Counted from the stretch's first letter, positions 3,203 to 18,242 are shown. The stretch: 18,436 nucleotides of DNA from Candidatus Eiseniibacteriota bacterium (GCA_031431875.1 JANPEF010000117.1:1-18436), one strand, 5' to 3'. Notes: generated by a model not told the origin, from the sequence alone. Translations and numbers: made by a program.

Positions 3203-3287
3203 CCCGCGGCCCGGAGGTGCCCTTTTGGAGTGGCGTACGGGGCGTACAAAACGTACGAACCGTACGCACACCTCCGGGAACGCCCCG
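3203..3287 (+). repeat. ~85-bp dispersed direct repeat, copy A, with four 9-bp-period CGTAC(G/A) units
   Basis: Aligns with 4501-4584 with about 12 differences by manual count. Confidence 0.9.
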
Positions 3288-3347
3288 CTGAACGCTCGCT
3301 CTCCGTCGCGCATTACCATCCCCATCCAGGATCCATAACCCATCGCC

Positions 3348-4418
3348 ATGCACGCTCTCCCCCGCCGAACTCCTTCGCTGCTTCTGCGCCACTTCGTCGC
3401 CGACGAGGCCGCGGCTCTCCGCACGCTGAGCACCGAGGCGTCCACGAGCCGCTGGCTGCCGTCGCATGTCGATCCGACCATCGAGGACGCCGTGTCGAGG
3501 CTGGCCTACCTCGTCTCCTGCTACGTCGACCCCGGGGATCCGGTGAAGGGCCCGTACGTGCTTGCGGTCGAGCACCGGGACACGGGCCGGTTGCTCGGGC
3601 ACTTGGGCTTCAGCCCGGTCGACGACGAGGTCGAGGTGTCCTACTCCATTGCCGAGGCGGCACGCGGTCGCGGCTACGGCGTCGAGACCCTCGTGCACGG
3701 CTGCGCGTGGCTCGCCGAGACCTTTGCGGTGCCGCAGATCATCGCGATCACGGCGTCGGCAAACGCAGCGTCACGTCGGGTGCTCGAACGAGCAGCGTTC
3801 GTGCTCGAGCACGAGGGCGCAATGATCTTCCAGGGGCGGGAGGAGATCGTGAGCCGCTACCGATGGCGCGCGTCGGAGGCCCGTGGTCTCGACGCCGGGC
3901 ACGATATCGTCGTTCGTGACGCGACTCCCGCGGACCTGCCAGCGCTCTGCGCGGTTCGCGACGCGCGCGCGCAGCACGAGGGAAAGCTGGCCGAGGCGGG
4001 CACCGGATCCTCGCGCTTTCTCGTCGCCACGATCGGGGGCGAGATCATCGCATTCGCGAGCGTGTTCCTGCTGAACCCGGCGCTCGGACCGGCGAAGTCG
4101 CATATTCCCAAACTGAGCGACTGCTGGGTGGCGGCGGCCTTTCGCTCCCGCGGCGTGGGGCGGGCGCTCGTGTCGGCGGGCGAGCGCATCGCGCGCGAGT
4201 TTGGCTGCGAACGCCTCTACGTCGGGATCGACCCGGTGGCGAACCCGCGCTGGCTCGAGTTCTTTCGGCGGCGCGGGTACGAGCCGCTGCAGCCGGAGCC
4301 GTACCGCAAGCTCGAGCGGTGGGTGACGGCGGCGGGGGTGAGCGAGGAGGTCGTGGCGTGGCGGGTGGAGCTTGTCATTGAGCTCGGTCGGCGCGCCGAG
4401 GCTTCCGGTCCGGATTGA
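3348..4418 (+). CDS. Two-domain GNAT acetyltransferase (RimJ/RimL-like domain plus a second GNAT domain)
   Basis: Two acetyl-CoA motif A sites (ARGRGYG and FRSRGVG); NAASRRVLER in the first domain. Confidence 0.85.
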   Translation: MHALPRRTPSLLLRHFVADEAAALRTLSTEASTSRWLPSHVDPTIEDAVSRLAYLVSCYVDPGDPVKGPYVLAVEHRDTGRLLGHLGFSPVDDEVEVSYSIAEAARGRGYGVETLVHGCAWLAETFAVPQIIAITASANAASRRVLERAAFVLEHEGAMIFQGREEIVSRYRWRASEARGLDAGHDIVVRDATPADLPALCAVRDARAQHEGKLAEAGTGSSRFLVATIGGEIIAFASVFLLNPALGPAKSHIPKLSDCWVAAAFRSRGVGRALVSAGERIAREFGCERLYVGIDPVANPRWLEFFRRRGYEPLQPEPYRKLERWVTAAGVSEEVVAWRVELVIELGRRAEASGPD

Positions 4419-4500: not shown

Positions 4501-4584
4501 CCCGCGGCCCGGACGTGCCTTTTCGGGGGGCCGTACGAAGCGTACGAAACGTACGAACCGTACGCCCCCTCCCGGAACGCCCCG
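4501..4584 (+). repeat. ~85-bp dispersed direct repeat, copy B
   Basis: cccgcggcccggacgtgcc...cgtacgaagcgtacgaaacgtacgaaccgtacg...ggaacgccccg, matching 3203-3287. Confidence 0.9.
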
Positions 4585-7556: not shown

Positions 7557-7711
7557 TCCTGGCCTTGGGGCGCCTCGTCCGGAAGCTTGGGCAGCTCGAC
7601 AGTCTGCGGATCGACCTCGTCCATCTGCCCATCCCGTCACAGGACGAGCGGGATCCCGAGTGACGTGAACTTCTTCTAGAAATCCTCGCGCACCTGCGCC
7701 AGGTCCCGCAG
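7553..7711 (-). pseudogene. Collapsed remnant of the zeta-like ATPase + small-protein pair
   Basis: 7711-7679 gives LRDLAQVREDF (intact gene: LRDLAEAREDF); 7660-7553 gives LGIPLVL*RDGQMDEVDPQTVELPKLPDEAPQGQD* (intact: LGIPLVLWRDGQVVEVDAATVELPELPDEAPDSGD*). Confidence 0.85.
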
Positions 7712-8993: not shown

Positions 8994-9350
8994 ATGGCGA
9001 ATGGCGAACCGTCAGGCAGCGCGGCACCTGCGTCGATGGAGGGCATCCCTGTCGCCGCGATGGTCGAGAGCATCGTCGGATGCAAGTGGTCGATTCGCGT
9101 GCTCCAGCTCTGTGCCGATGGGCAGAATCAGCCCAGCGCCCTTCTCCGCGCGTGCCCTGGTCTGTCTGCGAAGGTGTTGAACGAGCGGCTGAGAAAATTG
9201 CTTCGGTTCGGCATCGTGCAGCGAACCGCGTACGGCGACAGGCCTCCCATCAAGGTCGAGTACCTGCTGACGCCTTTCGGCCGTCGCTTCCTGGTCATTC
9301 TCGACGAGATCCGTCGACTTCAAGAAGCCGTCGACGACGGCGCCGAATGA
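8994..9350 (+). CDS. HxlR-family winged-helix transcriptional regulator
   Basis: IVGCKWS, GLSAKVLNERLRKL..FGIVQR, PPIKVEY.LTPFG. Confidence 0.9.
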   Translation: MANGEPSGSAAPASMEGIPVAAMVESIVGCKWSIRVLQLCADGQNQPSALLRACPGLSAKVLNERLRKLLRFGIVQRTAYGDRPPIKVEYLLTPFGRRFLVILDEIRRLQEAVDDGAE

Positions 9351-9414
9351 GACCGACACGAGCCATCCGAGCAGGCGCAGGGATCCCGCAGTGTCCGACA
9401 ACCCCGGGAGGTCG

Positions 9415-9545
9415 ATGAACGTTCGAAAGAGCTACGACTCGGCGGCGGGCCTGGGGATGTTGCCCACGATCCGGGCCAGCAAGGGGTCGCGATCTTCGGG
9501 GTCGACTTCTCGGCGAAGATGGTCGCGGCGGCCAGGAGCCGAGGA
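9415..9545 (+). pseudogene. Internally deleted class I SAM methyltransferase remnant
   Basis: GGAGGT RBS and MNVRKSYDSAA, then in another frame GPGDVAH...GVAIFGVDFSAKMVAAAR (motif I/post-I like); the intervening region is missing. Confidence 0.6.
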
Positions 9546-9594
9546 TCCCGTGACCAGCGGATCGATGCCTGGACATCCTTGCAGGGAAGGGCGG

Positions 9595-10134
9595 GAGCGC
9601 GTCGAGAGCGCGGTTGAGGATCTCGGCGACCTCGCCGACCCGGATGCGATGCGCCAGGAGCACCTGCGCCCATTCGAGCTTGGCGTGCGGCCCTTCGCCA
9701 AGGGCGACCTTGAGCAGGAAATCAGGTCGGGCGTGGACCACTTTGTGACCAATTCACCTCGCCTGGGATAGGTGAATTGGTCACAAAGTGGTCCATGTCC
9801 GGGCCGGCTCCGGTGGAGTCGGCGGAGCGGGAGCCGCCGCCGGCGCGAGCAGCATTGGTGCGGGCCGCGGTGGGAGTGAGGGCAGGTGCGGGGCGAGCAT
9901 CGAGACCGCGGTCAGGTGGAGCCGGCCGCTCGCGATGGCGTCGAACAGCGCCGGGAACCGCCGCGCGGCGCGGGTAGACTGAACTCGCCGGAAGGCCGCG
10001 CCTTCCGAGAGCCCGAGGGCCCCCACGCAGAATAGGTCCATGGAGTTGTCGCCCGCCGGCAGGTCCAGGCGGCGGAGGTCGACCTCGGCGATGTGGGCGA
10101 GGATGACCGCGGTGGCAGCGCGCTCGCCGGCGAC
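9595..10134 (-). pseudogene. Decayed paralog of the DUF222-like HNH gene at 15171-16301
   Basis: AGERAATAVILAHIAEVDLRRL...RLHLTAVSMLAPHL and LKVALGE..HAKLE.AQVLLAH...RALDAL in different frames; start and HNH domain absent. Confidence 0.92.
9734..9795. repeat. Perfect inverted repeat, 26-bp arms, 10-nt loop
   Basis: tggaccactttgtgaccaattcacct-cgcctgggat-aggtgaattggtcacaaagtggtcca. Confidence 0.97.
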
Positions 10135-10311
10135 GAGGCTGTCGATTGCCGCCGCCGTCGTCATCGGGTCCTTGAAGATCGCCTCCCACTTCGAGAACGG
10201 CAGCGCTTGCGCCTGCGGGCTGACTCGCTGCGGCAGTCGCTTCTGGTCGAACGTGGGGAGGCTCTTCTCGAGCGGCAGGCGTGACTCGCGGAGCAGTCGC
10301 GCGATCCGGTT
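10132..10311 (-). mobile_element. istB: IS21-family istB remnant, internally deleted
   Basis: NRIARLLRESRLPLEKSLPTFDQKRLP joined to LPFSKWEAIFKDPMTTAAAIDSLV; both are IstB segments, and the Walker A/B core is missing. Confidence 0.8.
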
Positions 10312-10567
10312 CGGTGAAGCACTCGCGGATCGTCGAGATTCATCGCGCTGCTTGGCGCCATCAGGCACCTCGCAGCAGCGCGCTTGTGATGCCGGCTCGG
10401 GGGTCGAGCGACCCCGACCGGCGCCCGGGCTTGCCTCAAGCCGCCCGGCGGCCCCAAGCTGCGGCGCACCCTGGGCTCGGGGCCGAACCCGGCCGGGGTT
10501 CCTGGATGGCTTCGTCGTGTCACCCCAGTGGCATCTCGCTCTCGCGAGAGCCTGCGAGGAGGATTTC

Positions 10568-11590
10568 GTGAGCATTGAAGCGCAGGGCACTCCCCCCCAC
10601 GCCAACCTCATCCAGCTCGCGTCCGCGTACTGGGCGTCCCGGATCGTCTACGCGGCTGCGCGCCTTCGACTCGCGGATCACCTCGCGGCGGGCCCGCGCA
10701 GTGCGGCCGAGCTGGCGCCGTTGACCGGCACGCACGCGCCGTCCCTCCATCGCCTCATGCGCACGCTGGCGAGTCTCGGGATCCTGGTCTCGGTTGATGC
10801 GGAGCGGTTCGCCCTCACGCCGGTCGGTGAGGCGTTGCGCACCGGGGCGCCGGGGGCGGCGTTGCCCACCGTGCTGACCTTCGGGAGTCCGTGGTTCACG
10901 CGTGGGTTCGAGGAGATCCTGCATTCGCTCGAGACGGGTGGCACGGGTTTCGAGAAGGCGATGGGGATGCCGGCGTTTGATTACCTCGCGCAGAATCCCG
11001 AGGCGGCCGGTTGGTTCAACGAGACGATGGTCGGCTTCCATGGCGCGGAGCCGGCTGCCGTGGCGGCGGCGTACGACTTCTCCGGTTTCGAGACGGTGAT
11101 CGATGTCGGCGGCGGCACCGGAAATCTCATGGCGGCGATTCTCGCTCGCCACGCGGGGCCCAGGGGCGTGCTCTTCGACCGGCCGTACGTGATCGCGAAC
11201 GCGCCGGCGTTGCTGCGCGAGCGCGGCGTCGAATCGCGCGTGACGCTCGAGGGCGGCGACTTCTTCGCGGGAGTGCCCTCCGGCGGCGACTGCTACGTGC
11301 TCTCGCACGTGATCCACGACTGGACCGAGGAACAGTGCCTCACGATCCTCGCCCACTGCCGGGCGGCGATGCGGCCGGGCGCACGACTTCTCCTCGTCGA
11401 GATGGTGCTGCCCGAGGGCAACACGCCGCACCCGGGCAAGATGCTCGACATCGTGATGCTGGTGCTGCCCGGGGGGCAGGAGCGGACCGAGGCCGAGTAC
11501 GGGGCGCTGCTGGCTCGGGCGGGATTTCGGGTCGAGCGCGTGGTGCCGACGGAGTCGGCGGTGAGTGTCGTCGAGGCGGTGGTGGGGTGA
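10568..11590 (+). CDS. O-methyltransferase (Methyltransf_2 with dimerisation domain)
   Basis: GTG after GAGGAGGA; VIDVGGGTG, GDFF, LSHVIHDW, GGQERT..EY..LL..AGF. Confidence 0.92.
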   Translation: MSIEAQGTPPHANLIQLASAYWASRIVYAAARLRLADHLAAGPRSAAELAPLTGTHAPSLHRLMRTLASLGILVSVDAERFALTPVGEALRTGAPGAALPTVLTFGSPWFTRGFEEILHSLETGGTGFEKAMGMPAFDYLAQNPEAAGWFNETMVGFHGAEPAAVAAAYDFSGFETVIDVGGGTGNLMAAILARHAGPRGVLFDRPYVIANAPALLRERGVESRVTLEGGDFFAGVPSGGDCYVLSHVIHDWTEEQCLTILAHCRAAMRPGARLLLVEMVLPEGNTPHPGKMLDIVMLVLPGGQERTEAEYGALLARAGFRVERVVPTESAVSVVEAVVG

Positions 11591-11601
11591 CGACCGTTCG
11601 A

Positions 11602-11817
11602 TCAGTCGCCTGAGTCAGGCGCCTCGTCCGGCAGCTCGGGCAGCTCGACGGTTGCGGCATCGACCTCGACCACCTGGCCATCCCGCCACAACACGAGCGG
11701 GATGCCGAGCTGCCGATGGCGGAGGATGGTCCGGCGCTGGGCGGCGACCATGGCGCGGTCGATCGCGGTGCCTTCGCGAATGATCCGGCCGATGTCGCGT
11801 CGCGGGTGCTGGCTCAC
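11602..11817 (-). CDS. Small conserved protein coupled to the zeta-like ATPase
   Basis: GTG start overlaps the ATPase TGA (GTGA); HRQLGIPLVLWRDGQVV motif; a paralogous remnant at 7553-7660 supports coding status. Confidence 0.75.
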   Translation of the reverse strand: MSQHPRRDIGRIIREGTAIDRAMVAAQRRTILRHRQLGIPLVLWRDGQVVEVDAATVELPELPDEAPDSGD

Positions 11818-12425
11818 GAGATCTCCTCCAGGCGTTCGCGAATGGTCCGCCCCGCCGAGGCGTCGAGAACGGTCGGTTCCCCGGCTCCGGCCCCGCGGGC
11901 GATGAGAGGCCGCCGGTCGATGGCGCTTCCATCGTACACCCGCCAGGTCGTGGCATCCGGCCGGTACAGCCGATCGAAGTTCGCGAGGCTCTTCCAGAAG
12001 CGGCGCCGGATGACCGGTTCGGGGACGTCATGTCCACCGCTCGCGACCCGGGTCCGGACCCGGGCGATCGAGGTCTCCGGCGACGGCAGCCACAGATAGA
12101 AGACGTGGACCTCGTATCCGGTCTCGACCAGCCCCCGAAGGAACCGGTGCGCGGAGCGACCGGCCAGCGTGCTCTCGAACGCGAAGTCCTCGCGCGCCTC
12201 CGCCAGGTCCCGCAGCCGGCGCAGCATGATCCGGCCGGCCTCGACCGCGGCCGTCTCCGGGCTGAACCCCGCCAGTCCCTGGGCGATCACGTCGGCGTTG
12301 ACGAAGGCGTCGATGCCGACCGCGTCCTGCAGAAGGTCTGGAGCGGCGGACGTCTTCCCCGCGCCATTGGGCCCGGCGATGACGACGACTTGCGGGAAGA
12401 GGGAGGAGTCCGCGACGAAGCTCAT
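11814..12425 (-). CDS. Zeta-toxin-family / AAA-like P-loop protein
   Basis: IAGPNGAGKTS, FVNADVIA, FAFESTL, RV..RV.SGGHDVP..VIRRRF; ATG 12425. Confidence 0.87.
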   Translation of the reverse strand: MSFVADSSLFPQVVVIAGPNGAGKTSAAPDLLQDAVGIDAFVNADVIAQGLAGFSPETAAVEAGRIMLRRLRDLAEAREDFAFESTLAGRSAHRFLRGLVETGYEVHVFYLWLPSPETSIARVRTRVASGGHDVPEPVIRRRFWKSLANFDRLYRPDATTWRVYDGSAIDRRPLIARGAGAGEPTVLDASAGRTIRERLEEIS

Positions 12426-12432
12426 GGCACGC

Positions 12433-12438
12433 AGTGTA
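12433..12438 (-). promoter_or_regulatory. -10 element, probable leaderless promoter
   Basis: TACACT lies 7 nt upstream of ATG 12425, with no Shine-Dalgarno. Confidence 0.5.
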
Positions 12439-12503
12439 GGCGGGCCACGTGCGGGTGAACCACTCCGGAATTGGGAAGGCTCCATGGAAGTCGTGGAGGT
12501 ACG

Positions 12504-13754
12504 ATGCGAACGGAGAACGGTCGCACGCACACGCCCTTCGCCCGCAGGGCACGATCCCGGTCACGAGGAAGCCTTCCCTTGCCCCCTTCGCCCAGGCGCC
12601 TTCGTGTTCACACGCTCGCGCTCCTCCTCGTGCTCCTGGCCCCGCTCACGGCGAGCGCCGCCACCGGCGACGACGCCGAGACGCTCCGATCGGTCGTCGA
12701 CCGGACGATTCGTCCACTCATGACGCGGCACGACATCCCCGGCATGGCGGTGGGGCTGACCGTCGACGGTTGGTCCTATGTCTTCAACTACGGGGTGGCA
12801 TCGAAGCAGGGCGGGGCGTCGGTCACGGATTCGACGCTGTTCGAGGTCGGCTCGATCAGCAAGATGTTCACCACCACGCTGGCAGCCTACGCGCAGACGA
12901 CCGGCAGGCTGTCGCTGGATGAACATCCGGGCCGCTACATTCCACGTCTGAAGGACCGGCCCATCGATCGGGCGACGCTTCTTCATCTCGGGACCTACAC
13001 GGCGGGCGGCCTGCCGCTGCAGTTTCCCGACGACGTCGGGGACGACGCGGCGGCAATTGCCTACCTCCGCGCCTGGAACTCCGAAGCCGCACCGGGCACG
13101 GTGCGCGAGTACTCCAATCCGAGCCTCGGGCTCCTCGGCGCAGTCACCGCCGCGGCACTCGAGGACAGCTTCGCGACGCTGGTCGAAACCCGGCTCCTGC
13201 CGAAGTTCGGCATGCGCAACACCTGGCTCCACGTGCCGGCCCAGGCGATGGCCGACTATGCCTGGGGACACCGCGCGGGAAAGCCGGTCCGTGTCCGACC
13301 CGGCCCCATGGACGAGGCGACGTATGGCATCAAGTCGACCGCCGCCGACATGATTCGCTTCGTGCAGGCAAACATCGATCCCGGCGGACTCGATGCTCCG
13401 CTGCAACGGGCCGTCGCTGCGACCCAGGTCGGCTACTTCAGGGTCGGTCGTGTGGTGCAGGGCTTCGGATGGGAGCAGTTTCCGTATCCGCTCTCCCGCG
13501 AAGTGTTGCTGGCGGGCAACGCGGAGGGGGTGATCTATGAAAGGAATCCGGTGCAGCCCCTGGCGCCCCCGGCTGTCGCCGGGATGCGCCTATATGACAA
13601 GACCGGCTCGACGGGAGGTTTCGGCGCCTATGTCGTGTTCGTGCCGGCGAAACGGATCGGCCTGGTGATGCTGGCCAACCGGAACTACCCCATTTCCGCG
13701 CGGGTCGAGGCGGCGTACGCGATCCTGGAGGAGATGGGGCAGGATCCGCGCTGA
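12504..13754 (+). CDS. ampC: Class C beta-lactamase (AmpC-like)
   Basis: FEVGSISK (SxxK), YSN, KTGSTGGFGAY, LGTYTAGGLPLQFPD, VMLANRNYP; GGAGGT RBS; signal-like hydrophobic segment ending ASA. Confidence 0.9.
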   Translation: MRTENGRTHTPFARRARSRSRGSLPLPPSPRRLRVHTLALLLVLLAPLTASAATGDDAETLRSVVDRTIRPLMTRHDIPGMAVGLTVDGWSYVFNYGVASKQGGASVTDSTLFEVGSISKMFTTTLAAYAQTTGRLSLDEHPGRYIPRLKDRPIDRATLLHLGTYTAGGLPLQFPDDVGDDAAAIAYLRAWNSEAAPGTVREYSNPSLGLLGAVTAAALEDSFATLVETRLLPKFGMRNTWLHVPAQAMADYAWGHRAGKPVRVRPGPMDEATYGIKSTAADMIRFVQANIDPGGLDAPLQRAVAATQVGYFRVGRVVQGFGWEQFPYPLSREVLLAGNAEGVIYERNPVQPLAPPAVAGMRLYDKTGSTGGFGAYVVFVPAKRIGLVMLANRNYPISARVEAAYAILEEMGQDPR

Positions 13755-13777
13755 GGAGTCGAACGGAGGTAACGGCG

Positions 13778-14125
13778 ATGTCCTTCTCCGAAATCGAGTG
13801 GAAACGTTTTGAGCTCGACCTGGCGCGCTTCATGGCGAGGCGCCGGCCGCCGCCGCATGTCCGGCACGAGCTCGACCTGGCGCACCGCCTGCGCGGACAG
13901 AGCGTGGAGATCTACTCGATCCGGCCGCCGTGGGACGGCCGGGGTGCGCCGATCGAGCACCCCATCGCCCGCATGACCTTCGTGCGCGCCCGGAACATCT
14001 GGCGTCTCTTCTGGATGCGGCAGGACCTGAAGTGGCATTCCTACGAGCCGAAGGCCGAGGCGCGCTCCCTGCGGGAGTGCCTGGACGTCGTGGATCAGGA
14101 CGCCCACGCATGCTTCTTCGGCTAG
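13778..14125 (+). CDS. DUF3024 family protein
   Basis: RRPP.HVR.ELDL, W.LFWMRQDLKWH.YEP, DAHACFFG; GGAGGT RBS. Confidence 0.87.
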   Translation: MSFSEIEWKRFELDLARFMARRRPPPHVRHELDLAHRLRGQSVEIYSIRPPWDGRGAPIEHPIARMTFVRARNIWRLFWMRQDLKWHSYEPKAEARSLRECLDVVDQDAHACFFG

Positions 14126-14130
14126 AGCCA

Positions 14131-14143
14131 CCACGTCACTTCC
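14131..14143 (+). repeat. 13-bp direct repeat of the mnmE stop region (distal copy)
   Basis: ccacgtcacttcc, identical to 16797-16809. Confidence 0.7.
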
Positions 14144-14185
14144 GGGGCTTGCGTGCGGCGATCTCCCGGGGCAATCTCTCCGACC

Positions 14186-14734
14186 TTGCACGATCTCCCC
14201 CGTCGAACCCCATCGCTGCTGCTGCGCCACTTCGTCGCGGAAGACGCGGCGGAGATCATGGCGTTGAACGCCGAAGCGTCCACCGGGCGGTGGCTTCCGT
14301 CGCATGTGTACGCTTCGCTCGAGGAGACTTCGGCGCGACTGGGCGATCTGATTTCCTGCGATTCGTCGCCGGGGGATCCGCGGCTCGGGGCGTATGTGCT
14401 GGCTGTCGAAGACTTGGAGCTCGGTCGGTTGCTCGGGCATGTCGGCTTCAGTCCGCTCGATGTGGACGTTGAAGTGTCGTACGCCATCGCCGAGGCGTTT
14501 CGGGGTCGGGGTCTTGGCGCCGAGGCGCTTGCGTCTGCCTGCTCGTGGATCGCGGAGACGTGGGGCGTGCCTCGAGTCCTTGCGGTCACCGCGTCCGCGA
14601 ACGCGGCATCCCGCCGGGTGCTGGATCGGGCGGGCTTCGTTCTCGAGGGCGAGCGGGTCATGGTCTTCCAGGGGGGCGAGGCGGTCGTGAGTCGTTATTT
14701 CTGGCACGCGACTGGAGTTGGGAGGATCGCCTGA
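14186..14734 (+). CDS. RimJ/RimL-like GNAT acetyltransferase
   Basis: Ungapped paralog of domain 1 of 3348-4418; FRGRGLG, NAASRRVL; TTG start inferred from that alignment. Confidence 0.85.
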   Translation: MHDLPRRTPSLLLRHFVAEDAAEIMALNAEASTGRWLPSHVYASLEETSARLGDLISCDSSPGDPRLGAYVLAVEDLELGRLLGHVGFSPLDVDVEVSYAIAEAFRGRGLGAEALASACSWIAETWGVPRVLAVTASANAASRRVLDRAGFVLEGERVMVFQGGEAVVSRYFWHATGVGRIA

Positions 14735-15174
14735 TGGAACCCGTGATTGATCACATCGAGATCACCGTTCGGGACACTTCGGTCGCGGCCGCCTTCTACG
14801 ACCGATTCCTCCCGTTGGTCGGGTATGACCTCGCGCTTCGCGGCGAGGTATACCTCGAGCGGCATGAGAAGCGCGTCGTGTCGTACGAGCACGAGCGCCT
14901 CGGCTTCGCGATCACGTCGCCCCTCGGCGTCTTCGCCGCCGAGGACATGAACCGCCGAAAGCCGGGGGCGCTGCATCACCTCTCCTTTCGGGTTGGCTCC
15001 CGGGCGGAGGTGGACCGGTTGCACCGCGAGCTGGTGGCGATCAGGGCCACGATCGTGATTCCGCCGCGCGAGTTCCCCGAGTTCACTCCGGCGGGCTACT
15101 ACGCGGTGTTCTTCACGGATCCGGATGGGATCCGCTACGAGATCGTTTGCACGGCCGGACCGGCCGGGGGCTAA
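14734..15174 (+). CDS. VOC/glyoxalase family protein
   Basis: IDHIEITV, GALHHLSFRV.SRAEVD, GYYAVFFTDPDGIRYE; TGATG coupling with the GNAT; GGAGG RBS. Confidence 0.9.
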   Translation: MEPVIDHIEITVRDTSVAAAFYDRFLPLVGYDLALRGEVYLERHEKRVVSYEHERLGFAITSPLGVFAAEDMNRRKPGALHHLSFRVGSRAEVDRLHRELVAIRATIVIPPREFPEFTPAGYYAVFFTDPDGIRYEIVCTAGPAGG

Positions 15175-16301
15175 TGTTCCTGGTCGTTCCGACCGTTGCG
15201 CTTGCTCTCCATGAACTCCCGCCCGAACTGCCTCTCCGCTTCGAACTGGTTGTGCGCGCGACAACGCAGGCGCAAGTTCTCGGCCGTCGACTCACCCCCC
15301 TTTGCGACCGGCAGCGCGTGGTCGAACTCCAGCCCGCGCTCGGCGGCGCACTTGTGGCCCGACGGACTGGTGAACGTGCAGCGGCCTCCATCGCGGGCCC
15401 AGACTTCGCGACGGATGGAGGCGGGGATGCCGCGGCTGTCCGTGCGCTCGAGGCGCGGGGCTCGCTGCCAGGCTGGCGCGACGGCCCCCCGCCGCGTCTC
15501 GAGCTTCGAAAGCAATGCATCGAGCGCGCGGTCCAGAACTTCGGCAACCTCGCCGGCGCGCACGCTGTGCGCGAGCAGCACCTGCGCGCGCTCGAGCTTG
15601 GCGTGAGTTGTCTCCCCCAGCGCGACTTTGAGGACGAAATAGGGTTGGGCGGTGGGCATGACCCGCGGCTCCGTGGGAGCCTGCGCTCCGATTGCCCAAT
15701 TCACCTCGCCTGAGATAGGTGAATTGGGCAATCCGGCCGTCCCACTTGGCGCTGTGGCCGAGGCGGTCGCCGCACCAGCCGCAGGCAAGGCGGGCAACGC
15801 CGGCGGTGCGAGCGGAAGCGCCGCGGGGCTCGGTGGCGCCGCCACCGGTACCCCCACAACCCGCACCTGCGCCGCCGGTAGCGCCGCGCCCTCGGCCGGG
15901 AATCGCCTCGCGAGCCAGGCCTGGAGCTCGGAGCGCGTACGCTGTGAGGTGGCGGCGGCGATCAGCTCGTCGGCGTTCGATTCGCGCAGGTGCGGGGCGA
16001 GCATCGAGATCGCGGTCAGGTGAAGCCGGCCGGTCGCGATGGCATCGAACAGCACCGGAAAGCGGCGCGCTGCCCGGGCGGACTGGACTCGCCGGAACGC
16101 GGCGCCTTCGGAGAGCCCGAGAAATCCAACGCAGTAGGCGTACATGGAGTTGTAGGCCGCCGGCAGGTACAGCCGGCGCAGGTCGACCTCCGCGATGTGG
16201 GCCAGGATGACGGCGGTGGCGGCGCGTTCGCCGGCGATGAAGGCGCGGAGTTGCCGCATCAGCGTGTCGTCGTCGAGCTGCGAGAGGGAGTAGCCGTTCA
16301 T
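15171..16301 (-). CDS. HNH endonuclease with DUF222-like N-terminal domain
   Basis: C-terminal IPASIRREVWARDGGRC...LEFDH..P.AKGG.ST.ENLRLRCRAHN; helical N-domain; Pro/Ala linker containing a DNA hairpin; candidate -10 TAGACT at 16345-16350. Confidence 0.88.
   Translation of the reverse strand: MNGYSLSQLDDDTLMRQLRAFIAGERAATAVILAHIAEVDLRRLYLPAAYNSMYAYCVGFLGLSEGAAFRRVQSARAARRFPVLFDAIATGRLHLTAISMLAPHLRESNADELIAAATSQRTRSELQAWLARRFPAEGAALPAAQVRVVGVPVAAPPSPAALPLAPPALPALPAAGAATASATAPSGTAGLPNSPISGEVNWAIGAQAPTEPRVMPTAQPYFVLKVALGETTHAKLERAQVLLAHSVRAGEVAEVLDRALDALLSKLETRRGAVAPAWQRAPRLERTDSRGIPASIRREVWARDGGRCTFTSPSGHKCAAERGLEFDHALPVAKGGESTAENLRLRCRAHNQFEAERQFGREFMESKRNGRNDQEH
15690..15733. repeat. Perfect inverted repeat, 17-bp arms, 10-nt loop, inside the HNH gene
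   Basis: gattgcccaattcacct-cgcctgagat-aggtgaattgggcaatc. Confidence 0.95.
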
Positions 16302-16425
16302 GTTCGAACTCGCTGCGGGGGCGAGATCGGTGGGGACGCGACCAAGTCTACTCCCTGGGCGGGCCCGTCCGCTATGCTGGGCCGCCAGTGCACGAACCGA
16401 CCACGGAGATCCACGGAGGTTCCAC

Positions 16426-16764
16426 ATGATTGCACTCTTGATGGGGCTGAAGACGATCTCGCCCGCCGAGTTGTATCGGCTCGTGGAGCAGCGGGCCGTC
16501 GCAGTCTACGACGTCAACTCCCCGCAGAGCTGGGCCGGCGCGCACGTGCCGGGCGCGAAGCGCCTGGACCCCTCTGGATATCAGGCGGGCGAGCTGCCCG
16601 CGGACAGGGCTGGCCTGCTGGTGTTCTACTGCTCGAACCCATTGTGCCGGAAGGCGCCGAACGCGGCGAAGCGCGCCAAGGGGATGGGCTACACCGACGT
16701 GCGCGTGATGTCCGCGGGGATCACGGGATGGGTCGGGGCAAATCTGCCGACGGAGTCGGCATGA
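16426..16764 (+). CDS. Rhodanese-like domain protein
   Basis: GGAGGT RBS; YDVN, HVPGA, VFYCSNPLC, GY.DV.VM..GI.GW; TATGCT at 16373-16378. Confidence 0.88.
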   Translation: MIALLMGLKTISPAELYRLVEQRAVAVYDVNSPQSWAGAHVPGAKRLDPSGYQAGELPADRAGLLVFYCSNPLCRKAPNAAKRAKGMGYTDVRVMSAGITGWVGANLPTESA

Positions 16765-16796
16765 TCTCGTAGGTCGCGCCACCTGGCCCCACCCGG

Positions 16797-16809
16797 CCAC
16801 GTCACTTCC
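16797..16809 (+). repeat. 13-bp direct repeat spanning the mnmE stop codon
   Basis: Last 8 nt of mnmE plus 5 nt downstream; identical to 14131-14143. Confidence 0.7.
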
Positions 16810-18193
16810 CGATACAGAACCGCGCAAAAATCCGATCCAGCAAATCCGGTGCGGCGGCTTCGCCGGTGATCTCGCCGAGCGCGTCGAGCGCCAGGCGCAC
16901 TTCGCCGGCGACGATCTCGCCGGGCTCGCCGGCCGTTGCGGCCGCGCGGGCCGCGGCGATGGCGGTCTGGGCGCGACCGAGCGCGTCGATGTGGCGGCGG
17001 TTGGTAACCAGGGCTTCGGCGGTGTCGTCGGCCGCGCTGCCCCGGCCGCCCGCGCCGCCGCCCGCGCTGCCCACCGAGCCGCCGAGCCGGCGGATGATCT
17101 CTTCACGAAGCTCCGGCAACCCGGCTCCAGTGACGGCGGACACAGATCGGCGACTCTGCGGAGCCTCGTCGGGGAGCAGATCCAACTTCGTCCAGACCTG
17201 GACCGCCCTGCCCTGGTCAACGAGCTCCCGGAGCGCGTCCATCTCGCGCGAATCACTCTCCGTCCGATCGATCACCAGCAGCACCAGGTCGGCATCCGCC
17301 AGCTCACGCCGCGTGCGCTCGACGCCGAAGGCCTCGACCCCATCGGCATCGCGCACGCCGGCGGTGTCGACCAGCCGCACCGGGATGCCGCCGAGGTCGA
17401 TGCGCTCGGCCACCGCGTCGCGCGTGGTGCCGGGCGTGTCGGAGACGATCGCGCGGTCTTCGCCGAGCAGGGCGTTGAACAGCGACGACTTACCGGCGTT
17501 CGGTAGCCCGACGAGCACGACCCGGACGCCCTCGCGGGCGCGGCGGCCCAGGTCGGATCCAGCGAGCAGGGCCGCGAGGCGGGCGTCGCACTCGGCCAGG
17601 GCGACCGCCACCGCCGGTGGCACCGCGCCGCCATCGACGTCTTCGGCGAAGTCCACACGCGCCTCGATCTCGGCCAGCGCGTTGCGCAACGTCTCGGCCG
17701 TGGCGCGGAGTCCGCGCGAGAGCGCCCCCTCGATCTGACGGACGGCCAATCGCTGCGCGAGAGCGGTCTCGGCATGAATCACGTCGGCGACCGCTTCGGC
17801 CTGGGCAAGATCGATGCGGCCGCCGAGGAACGCCCGTTCGGTGAACTCGCCCGGGCGAGCCACGCGCGCGCCCGCCACAAGAAGCGCGTCCAGCAAGCGC
17901 GGCGCCGAATGCGCACCCCCGTGGCAGGTGATCTCGACCATGTCCTCGCCGGAGTAGGACGCTGGTGCGCGCAGGACGACGGCGGTCACTTCATCGATCG
18001 GATCGCCGTCCGGGCCGGGCGCGAAGGTCCAGCCATGGCGCAGCATCCGGGCCGGTCCCTCGGACAGCAAACGCCGCCCACGGAACACGCGATCCGCAAT
18101 GGCGACAGCGGACGGCCCCGAGAGCCGCACGACGGCGAGTGCGGAGGCGCCCGGTGCGGTGGCGATGGCGGCGATCGTGTCGGCGTGGGACAT
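16802..18193 (-). CDS. mnmE: tRNA modification GTPase MnmE (TrmE)
   Basis: DTIAAIATAPG, PGEFTERAF, GLPNAGKSS, GTTRD, DTAG, C-terminal FCIGK; AGGAG RBS. Confidence 0.98.
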   Translation of the reverse strand: MSHADTIAAIATAPGASALAVVRLSGPSAVAIADRVFRGRRLLSEGPARMLRHGWTFAPGPDGDPIDEVTAVVLRAPASYSGEDMVEITCHGGAHSAPRLLDALLVAGARVARPGEFTERAFLGGRIDLAQAEAVADVIHAETALAQRLAVRQIEGALSRGLRATAETLRNALAEIEARVDFAEDVDGGAVPPAVAVALAECDARLAALLAGSDLGRRAREGVRVVLVGLPNAGKSSLFNALLGEDRAIVSDTPGTTRDAVAERIDLGGIPVRLVDTAGVRDADGVEAFGVERTRRELADADLVLLVIDRTESDSREMDALRELVDQGRAVQVWTKLDLLPDEAPQSRRSVSAVTGAGLPELREEIIRRLGGSVGSAGGGAGGRGSAADDTAEALVTNRRHIDALGRAQTAIAAARAAATAGEPGEIVAGEVRLALDALGEITGEAAAPDLLDRIFARFCIGK

Positions 18194-18207
18194 GATGCAC
18201 TCCTGCA

Positions 18208-18242
18208 AAGAACAAAACCCCGGCTCGACGGCGAGCCGGGGT
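18208..18242 (-). terminator. Intrinsic terminator-like hairpin between jag and mnmE
   Basis: 11-bp stem accccggctcg/cgagccggggt with a 4-nt loop, followed on the - strand by tttgttcttt; a second GC hairpin lies at 18258-18281. Confidence 0.6.

Follow-up and report, generated by a model that had tools for sequence, protein, structure and literature searches.

Free-standing HNH homing endonucleases are selfish genes that are expected to spread by cutting and recombinational repair. Among the systems closest to the one described here are the 13E12 genes, which have been reported as repetitive elements and inversion breakpoints (PMC13157036, PMC10589994), and the ParB family, in which ParB or Noc places its recognition helix in the major groove of a palindrome, and in which replacing an arginine of this helix by glutamine switches the readout from G to A (as described in PMC7383237). 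ParB regulation is the subject of PMC13371061 and PMC7022226, whose passages on this subject do not describe a site arranged inside the gene. Here we analyse a window, by which we mean the whole stretch of 18,436 nt from Candidatus Eiseniibacteriota bacterium (GCA_031431875.1 JANPEF010000117.1:1-18436), that holds one intact and one broken copy of an HNH gene, each with a hairpin. The hairpin core is one variant of an 18-bp AC...GT palindrome that lies in frame in the linker of multicopy HNH genes, and the long hairpins are a lineage-specific elaboration of this family-wide feature. Judging from the sequences, the palindrome is likely a duplex site that is bound by a dimer of the protein encoded by the same gene.

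The palindrome in the linker

All 12 copies of the gene in the genome from which the window comes (G000, 3.75 Mb) have an 18-bp AC...GT palindrome in the linker, and the sequences of these palindromes differ. Across G000, 86 palindromes of length 18 begin with AC, as opposed to 23 in a single shuffle; each of the other lengths from 14 to 26 is represented by 22-44. We identified 75 intact genes among 100 loci from related genomes and G000, the other 25 having been dropped by a motif filter that was too strict; 63 of the 75 genes contain AC-led 18-mers, 104 in total, in a single reading frame throughout, and palindromes of other lengths from 16 to 22 are represented by 0-4 sites in the same genes. 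Shuffling synonymous codons gave a mean of 2.3 and a maximum of six sites. With a looser gene filter, which dropped only three of the 100 loci, the strict site is found in 79 of 97 genes. In an independent set of 80 metagenome loci, 17 of which were left out as truncated or broken, 48 of the 63 intact genes have the site, and 64 of 65 18-mers share one frame. Among 70 distinct sites, the pair at positions 3/16 is TA in 43, AT in 18, CG in eight and GC in one, and the pair at positions 4/15 is GC in 30, TA in 23 and CG in 16. Given 104 sites where shuffled codons yield 2.3, and several pair types at one position, we conclude that nucleotide symmetry, rather than protein sequence, is kept. A preliminary description of the window had offered this as one of two readings of its two hairpins, and had suggested that the gene may carry a cis-acting site of its own, as indeed appears to be the case. 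In 15 hand-picked pairs of related genes, conservation is 88% in the site and 74% in the remaining linker. Sites lie inside the open reading frame in 127 of 160 genes, with occasional copies flanking the gene.

In the window, the intact gene (15171-16301, minus strand; 376 amino acids) has its 18-bp core site at 15703-15720, where it codes for SPISGEV (residues 194-200); this core is an asymmetric member of the family, with five of the eight outer pairs. The core site of the broken paralog (9595-10197, minus strand) is at 9756-9773. The two hairpins are as first described: a perfect stem of 17 bp in the intact gene (15690-15733) and one of 26 bp in the broken paralog (9734-9795), each with a loop of 10 nt, with cores that are one base apart, and with G-T pairs on the plus strand that lengthen the 26-bp stem to 9728-9801. 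Among the 18 perfect stems in G000 with at least 14 bp and a loop of 3-20 nt, the 26-bp stem ranks first and the 17-bp stem fifth, and their DNA folding z-scores relative to shuffled sequences are -9.5/-8.7 and -5.6/-5.9, respectively. The paralog is decayed, as had been noted: its start is lost, it has internal deletions and a frameshift, and what is left are three pieces that match residues 10-105, 193-210 and 218-263, with the HNH domain missing. Of its aligned bases, it shares 81% with an intact gene of the sister genome G001 (L082, where L-numbers denote family gene loci), and fewer, 78%, with the intact copy nearby.

The outer arms of the two hairpins had been considered unrelated. Instead, a single module, GAATTGG[G/T]C[A/T]N..., underlies the arms, in different variants, at 27 loci with the window core (four genomes or records); it resembles a degenerate half-site after a 2-bp spacer and often has a second AGTGG unit 11 bp further out. 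The left arm of the 17-bp stem (15690-15702) has the module variant GCAA, and that of the 26-bp stem (9734-9755) has the variant TCAC plus the second 11-bp unit; the right arms are at 15721-15733 and 9774-9795. Of 108 variable positions, 98 are concordant between the left and right arms, as compared to 78.2 in a within-genome shuffle (p=2e-4); this set leaves out a doubtful match in G004, one locus at a contig edge and one duplicate flank, and the 27 loci include orthologs from different genomes, which are not independent. The 26-bp form is not peculiar to the pseudogene, since the intact gene L082 carries it in frame as its normal form. Relative to L082, the right arm of the pseudogene completes a compensatory change of one C-G pair to T-A; one core base also differs, and the rest is 81% identical. 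Arm concordance and the compensatory change fit a process that actively symmetrises the arms, be it template switching, conversion or selection, and to this extent the suggestion that arm symmetry is actively kept stands for this subfamily. The long arms in the window are extra half-site-like units specific to the subfamily.

Across the family, the conserved unit is not the long hairpin that had been proposed, but a dyad of 18-20 bp in which the would-be loop positions pair and covary. Of 186 in-gene sites, 159 have arms that continue perfectly past the 18-mer for 0-2 bp only, and 135 have CG at the centre. We also defined a set of 68 sites solely by their outer six pairs. In this set, complementarity is found at pair 7/12 in 54 sites (24 in the shuffle) and at pair 8/11, which would fall in the loop of a hairpin, in 61 (42 on average in the shuffle, and 52 at most); at the central pair it does not exceed the shuffle (45 versus 41). 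Mismatches are of the G·T type in ten cases and of the A·C type in 12, such that neither strand is favoured. A duplex binding site is favoured, rather than a hairpin, by symmetry that runs through the centre and by G·T mismatches that are not biased to one strand.

Some relatives differ in the number or position of their sites. Five genes (L085 and L115-L118; genome G031) have 4-6 sites of mixed types each, mostly 36 bp apart. For Anaeromyxobacter and Elusimicrobia relatives, no AC-led 18-mer was found near the genes, and in the 32 loci scanned the exceptions are the acidobacterial ones and L012; relatives without an AC-led 18-mer may use other sites. The acidobacterial gene L003 is bracketed by two identical 18-bp sites (2756-2773 and 4134-4151), one just upstream of the left-end TTGAC motif described below and one at the 3' end.

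The predicted protein and its recognition helix

The protein is predicted to be a dimer that combines a ParB/KorB-like helix-turn-helix (HTH) domain, a ribbon-helix-helix (RHH) module and an HNH nuclease. Its AlphaFold model (predicted local distance difference test score, pLDDT, 82) consists of a helical N-terminal domain, a disordered linker (residues 171-207) that holds the site, a strand-helix-helix module and the HNH domain. For the N-terminal domain (residues 11-137; 15891-16271, minus strand; pLDDT 93), the prediction is a long dimerisation helix followed by a ParB/KorB-like DNA-binding fold. A fold search with this domain (VIA, 48,161 chains) placed the DNA-binding domain of ParB in complex with parS at rank 1 (6s6h; Z 7.4, root-mean-square deviation 3.9, 102 aligned residues), followed by KorB (Z 6.7 and 6.6), Raf1 (6.4) and, at rank 5, Spo0J (6.3), with the next unrelated entry at 5.3. 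The strand-helix-helix module (residues 219-271; 15489-15647, minus strand) is part of the predicted dimer interface; we label it RHH-like because of its secondary structure and a weak profile match to PDB 3no7 (E=0.032). In the HNH domain (residues 291-359; 15225-15431, minus strand), H328, C347, H350 and N351 are invariant and D327 nearly so in 116 sequences. The Pfam HNH match of the window protein falls below the cut-off (E=0.003), and the domain's fold matches include IscB, McrA and phage HNH proteins (Z 7.0-7.5). A model of the dimer, held together by helix 11-42 and residues 219-271, scored 0.80, versus 0.00 for the best of three controls; the mark applied to this score is reached by 20 of 30 solved pairs and one of 23 single chains. 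Contact agreement in the dimer model, which includes no DNA, is at least 63%, and pLDDT at least 66.

A short tail with a RuvA-C motif, predicted to be RuvA-C-like with three helices as in PF07499, ends 69 of the 160 genes. PF07499 (RuvA_C) is matched at E<=0.05 by 40 of 51 motif-selected tails (best 8.5e-8), and RuvA chains are the top PDB matches of the tail (E 0.003-0.9) apart from designed repeat proteins. PADLOC has no match for the window protein, and the nearest ESM Atlas clusters, found without a structure search, are unnamed or called 'HNH endonuclease family'.

Helix 65-80 (16062-16109, minus strand) is the putative recognition helix. For 44 representatives, the top four of 810 column-base tests pair residue 66 with base 5, residue 123 with base 8, residue 73 with base 4 and residue 69 with base 3, and residues 66, 69 and 73 share one face of this helix. 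Nine associations, chosen beforehand and fixed in advance, were then assessed in 36 new representatives. Those that replicated are R73 with G4 (p=7e-5), Q73 with T4 (p=4e-4), an aromatic residue 69 with T3 (p=1e-4), D66 with G5 (p=6e-4), R/K123 with C8 (p=1e-3) and S/A96 with C7 (p=6e-3). On a tree of 127 genes, built without the code columns or the linker, disjoint contrasts fall in the predicted versus the opposite direction 17/1, 16/3, 14/1, 7/0 and 11/2 times, and those for residue 96 (12/5) are not significant; the tree test on the first gene set alone was underpowered. A close contrast is provided by an ortholog of the window gene in the second sister genome, G002, which has Y69/R73 with a site that begins ACTGT, as opposed to F69/Q73 with ACCT in the window gene. 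The window gene agrees with the code at bases 4 and 5, and acidobacterial relatives, with their site at the 3' end of the gene, pair E73 with C4. Since the bases of the palindrome change in step with residues of the predicted recognition helix, the product of each gene copy likely binds its own gene.

Copies, solo sites and genomic surroundings

The family is widespread: 35 of 41 related genomes have a match, with up to 19 matches each, as do 113 of 151 genomes of the phylum, and 4,219 of 8,000 scored candidates passed E<=1e-20. Paralog pairs within one genome (78-97% identical) share a unit that begins at about -230, or less, and ends close to the stop codon; the sequences on either side of it are unrelated. 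The motif AAnATTTnncTTGACg, situated at about -225, marks the left end of the unit in 72 of the 105 representatives and is absent from all 94 control windows. This motif resembles the host -35 context at lexA, with no -10 element at the usual spacing; where the AT-rich TTGAC motif is present at about -225 (e.g. L084 and L124), it is about 160 bp from a -10-like box. There is no conserved motif after the stop codon. The site is roughly in the middle of the unit, at a median of 747 bp from the left motif and 778 bp from the stop codon. Upstream of the window gene, a GCCCCCG motif that is conserved family-wide, where it sits near -22, lies in the 5' leader (16316-16322, minus strand), and a -10-like hexamer at about -45 to -50 (16345-16350, minus strand) presumably belongs to the promoter; similar boxes in relatives cluster at -50 to -80, near -60.

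Sites are also found on their own. The core is not restricted to HNH genes, since four of the six genomic matches to its 32 nt (at most three mismatches) are outside them. Of 84 sites in G000, 58 are intergenic, 16 are in family genes and ten are in other predicted genes. By gap class, as assigned with a simple home-made gene caller, sites occur in 18 of 141 convergent, 20 of 783 tandem and four of 322 divergent gaps. The core is dispersed in G000, which is half of what would have refuted the preliminary description; the other half, a generic repetitive extragenic palindrome (REP) without relation to the HNH genes, does not apply. The window core occurs 12 times in G001, ten times in G002 and once, doubtfully, in G004, and was not found in G003 or G007. 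Among nine aligned locus pairs, three have site-bearing inserts of 65-140 bp that are absent from G000, one has a longer insert, and four have a different core at the same place. One family gene in G002 occupies the position of a two-site array in G000, and a second empty locus is devoid of sites. Five genomes that lack a family match have 27 pattern matches, of which none is fully paired. Solo dispersal is lineage-specific, occurring in this genus and not in every carrier.

Solo arrays at G000:C88:32842-32930, C140:15760-15840 and C149:21135-21215 combine different 18-bp palindromes with a 20-bp period and 2-bp spacers. Two further interpretations of solo sites were considered. A role as signals of gene capture or synteny breaks was not supported: they coincide with gene-scale breakpoints in four of 12 cases versus 31 of 247 gaps (p=0.06), or, on the G000 side, four of 14 versus 42 of 246 (p=0.22), in a comparison of 1.03 Mb of G002 (100 regions, about 30% of the genome) with G000. 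The idea that they are remnants of decayed genes was rejected, with the identity of their flanks to gene copies of the same core dropping to background within about 5 bp. Carriage by phages or plasmids was not found with the queries used: 15 viral loci have HNH-domain matches only, and PLSDB has no match to the N-terminal domain. One viral contig contains the acidobacterial 18-mer, with no family gene beside it. A cassette at G000:C120:6835-8167 (minus strand) contains lexA, a single-copy gene for a protein with a Y1-transposase fold, and dinB. Between the -35 and -10 elements of lexA (G000:C120:8241-8254) is a dyad, TGCAC-N4-GTGCA, that is a candidate LexA box of this lineage and has five exact matches in the genome.

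The remainder of the window contains other repeats and genes. A separate repeat family with a CGTACG-rich palindromic centre is represented at 3203-3277 and 4501-4575. It has 14 matches in G000, two of which are both strands of one copy; several copies have outer inverted ends resembling a miniature inverted-repeat transposable element of about 105 bp, and one adjoins an 18-bp site at G000:C124. Two GNAT-like paralogs (3346-3830 and 14184-14668) share 71-73% DNA identity, and a 92-nt direct repeat (7569-7660 and 11618-11709; 84% identical), just past the ends of genes, resembles a pair of fragments from a single coding sequence. A class C beta-lactamase gene (12471-13754, plus strand; above the NCBIfam bla_class_C cut-off) lies amid many small accessory genes. 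The HNH gene and the accessory-gene cluster are just downstream of the mnmE (trmE) GTPase gene (16802-18208, minus strand), and gene content near mnmE varies among G000, G001 and G002. No RNA data set is listed among the sequencing runs that contain this sequence, and contigs from sequencing runs aligned to 9000-17000 revealed no informative joint; the best-matching runs may themselves have supplied this DNA.

Proposed mechanism and comparison with described systems

With a little more confidence than doubt, we favour the reading in which the palindrome is a likely duplex binding site of the gene's own protein, which probably docks on it as a dimer and would then nick or cut close by, setting off recombination-based copying. 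We propose that the dimer docks on the cognate duplex site inside its own gene, that the HNH domain nicks or cuts nearby DNA with the site as cis signal, and that the gene unit, from about -230 to the stop codon, is then copied by recombination. In tailed members, the RuvA-C-like tail would recruit host RuvB. The same cut-and-repair activity could seed solo sites and symmetrise the arms in this genus. As helix and site diverge together, each paralog would become an orthogonal protein-site pair, and copies would therefore not act on each other. For the second half of this scheme, in which the site serves as cis signal for HNH nicking and recombination-based copying, aided by RuvB in tailed members, we consider the case to be evenly balanced. 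More tentatively, and with doubt outweighing belief, the family could be a transposase-free mobile element in which a ParB-HTH/RHH/HNH dimer on an operator within its own codons cuts, hijacks RuvB through a RuvA-C mimic and copies a unit of 1.4-1.7 kb; helix and operator would codiversify into hundreds of orthogonal pairs with a readable code, and escaped operators would become REP-like repeats.

Several observations weigh against this scheme. No strict site is present in 33 of the 160 genes, and site types are mixed inside several others (L085 and L115-L118). The window gene has neither a RuvA-C tail nor the AT-rich motif at the left end, and its asymmetric core breaks the code at base 3, where F69 is found with C. 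Three associations, A/G69 with A3, R76 with C8 and P103 with G5, were not replicated in the 36 new representatives; two of these failures concern residues 76 and 103. Well-supported branches alone yield few contrasts, with a median p of 0.016-0.18, and off-diagonal pairs covary too (residue 69 with base 4, 10/2; residue 69 with base 6, 0/8). The fold scores of the N-terminal domain are middling (Z<8), and Foldseek returned nothing for it at E<=0.001 (E>=0.58); the ParB match is therefore a likeness of fold, not proof. The dimer model may pass through likeness to solved RHH or ParB dimers. No clear terminal inverted repeats or target duplications were found in the paralog pairs or at the insert loci. 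G031 has 28 pattern matches, 17 of them within its five genes; the remaining 11 all lack full pairing. Solo types ACTCGCA (eight copies) and ACTCGTC (three copies) have no cognate gene among the 12 copies in G000, and solo-rich genomes are close kin, such that the correlation that they show is not an independent one.

The main alternative is that the site is a duplex operator for self-repression only, with the bound dimer blocking transcription through a toxic nuclease gene, and that copies and solo sites spread otherwise. This is on balance unlikely, but it deserves serious consideration: it accommodates the code, the fold and the dimer evidence equally well, KorB-type ParB proteins are described as repressors (in the relevant part of PMC7022226), sites in G031 are only inside genes, and there are no classical element ends. 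What it leaves unexplained are the solo inserts that are polymorphic between sister species, the bias of solo sites to convergent gaps rather than promoters, and the RuvA-C tail and diversification of specificity among paralogs. A different objection applies to the idea that the functional form is a folded single strand (a single-stranded DNA hairpin, an extruded cruciform or an RNA stem) that is recognised by the nuclease or processes the transcript. The stems of this subfamily are indeed very stable, their arms agree from left to right with one compensatory change, solo sites prefer convergent gaps as REPs do, and a RuvA-C tail would suit four-way junctions. We nonetheless regard a folded strand as improbable, since the family-wide unit has no loop, with a CG centre and a covarying pair 8/11, arms rarely extend beyond it, wobble pairs favour neither strand, base identity follows helix residues, and Rfam has no match in the window.

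Two further explanations detach the site from the HNH protein. A generic repeat, similar to a REP or a Rickettsia palindromic element, might have been spread by an unrelated enzyme and have landed in frame in a tolerant linker, making the HNH link incidental. Indeed, 68 of the 84 G000 sites are outside HNH genes, a gene resembling a Y1 transposase is present in 40 of 41 genomes, and orphan solo types exist. Nevertheless, the fully paired matches in G031 are only in genes, family-free genomes have the Y1-like gene yet no paired sites, and residues covary with bases. A REP-associated tyrosine transposase (RAYT) was also rejected as the disperser in G000, where the single Y1-like gene is located between lexA and dinB, does not encode the HUH histidines and has no sites on either side. 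We consider the generic-repeat explanation largely refuted, and it retains only a slight probability. Slighter still is the chance that a host regulator, for example LexA, uses the site as its operator. The pattern ACTG-N10-CAGT, which resembles the E. coli SOS box, fits 70 of 186 in-gene sites, and solo sites are found upstream of lexA in G000 and G002. Mycobacterial 13E12 genes, moreover, are reported to be induced by damage and LexA (in the pertinent section of PMC13157036). Against this, 116 of the 186 sites do not fit, within one genome the sites of paralogs vary along with the residues of each paralog, the dyad in the lexA promoter is different and, with one mismatch allowed, is not enriched upstream of family genes (2/141 versus 2/141), and solo sites avoid divergent promoter regions.

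Returning to the reading in which the dimer docks on its own gene, its closest parallels in DNA recognition are ParB-parS, Noc-NBS, KorB-OB and SopB-sopC, with which the family shares a predicted DNA-binding fold and, as the covariation suggests, two-fold symmetric recognition of a palindrome. In the ParB family, too, a small number of residues switches specificity, among them one in the recognition helix that changes between R and Q (according to PMC7383237). Unlike those proteins, the HNH family protein has no N-terminal CTPase domain, starting instead at the dimerisation helix, and has no ParBc match in Pfam; it is fused to RHH-like and HNH domains, there are many paralogs per genome, each with a site in its own codons, and the window has no ParA neighbour, its neighbours being small unrelated genes. 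Since each gene carries its own candidate site, every sequenced copy is a matched protein-site pair, and the family offers a very large natural data set on how ParB-type helices read DNA, with direct predictions for four residues and four bases. If the more tentative reading of a transposase-free element is correct, the family would also supply a natural library of programmable 18-bp DNA-binding nucleases.

The family shares multicopy genes, a helical N-terminus and a C-terminal HNH domain with DUF222-HNH/REP13E12 proteins. The earlier label 'DUF222-like' is loosely supported: the window protein has no Pfam DUF222 match, but 28 of 89 aligned N-terminal domains match DUF222 (PF02720) weakly at E<=0.05 (best 5.3e-6), and one Anaeromyxobacter member does so below the cut-off (E=0.0014). 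The descriptions of DUF222-HNH/13E12 genes in PMC13157036 and PMC10589994 cover repeats, recombination and damage induction, with no mention of a cis site, specificity code or mechanism. In openly accessible full texts, exclusive of supplements, we found no account of a cognate site in frame, or of a RuvA-C tail, for this family. The transposase-free reading, if true, would supply a mechanism for the long-unexplained repeats of the DUF222-HNH/13E12 type. Our proposal offers a testable route by which such multicopy HNH genes spread without a transposase, and a selfish nuclease that recruits the host branch-migration motor through a RuvA-C tail would be without a described precedent.

Other nucleases resemble the family in part. 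With IscB/OMEGA and HEARO systems, the likeness is limited to the HNH domain: the model here has no RuvC domain or bridge helix, there is no Rfam RNA in the window, NF040563 is matched by the HNH stretch only (18-25 bits versus a cut-off of 175), and specificity appears to be encoded by the protein. Compared with homing endonucleases, whose site is in an empty allele, the cognate site here lies uninterrupted within the gene, copies move to unrelated loci, and a RuvA-C-like tail is optional. The TnpA-REP (RAYT) systems also have an enzyme gene with cognate palindromes that are dispersed intergenically and coevolve with the enzyme (as outlined in PMC8266576), and the arrays and the inserts that are polymorphic between sister species in the genus of G000 are similar. 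In the family described here, however, the enzyme is an HNH protein with no Y1_Tnp match rather than an HUH/Y1 enzyme, the site is inside the gene rather than flanking it, the genes are multicopy, and dispersal occurs in some lineages only. The family may thus represent a second origin for REP-like repeats, one without an HUH enzyme, in which the favoured mode of recognition is HTH readout of a duplex, as opposed to the single-stranded hairpin with a tetranucleotide tag that is recognised in TnpA-REP systems.

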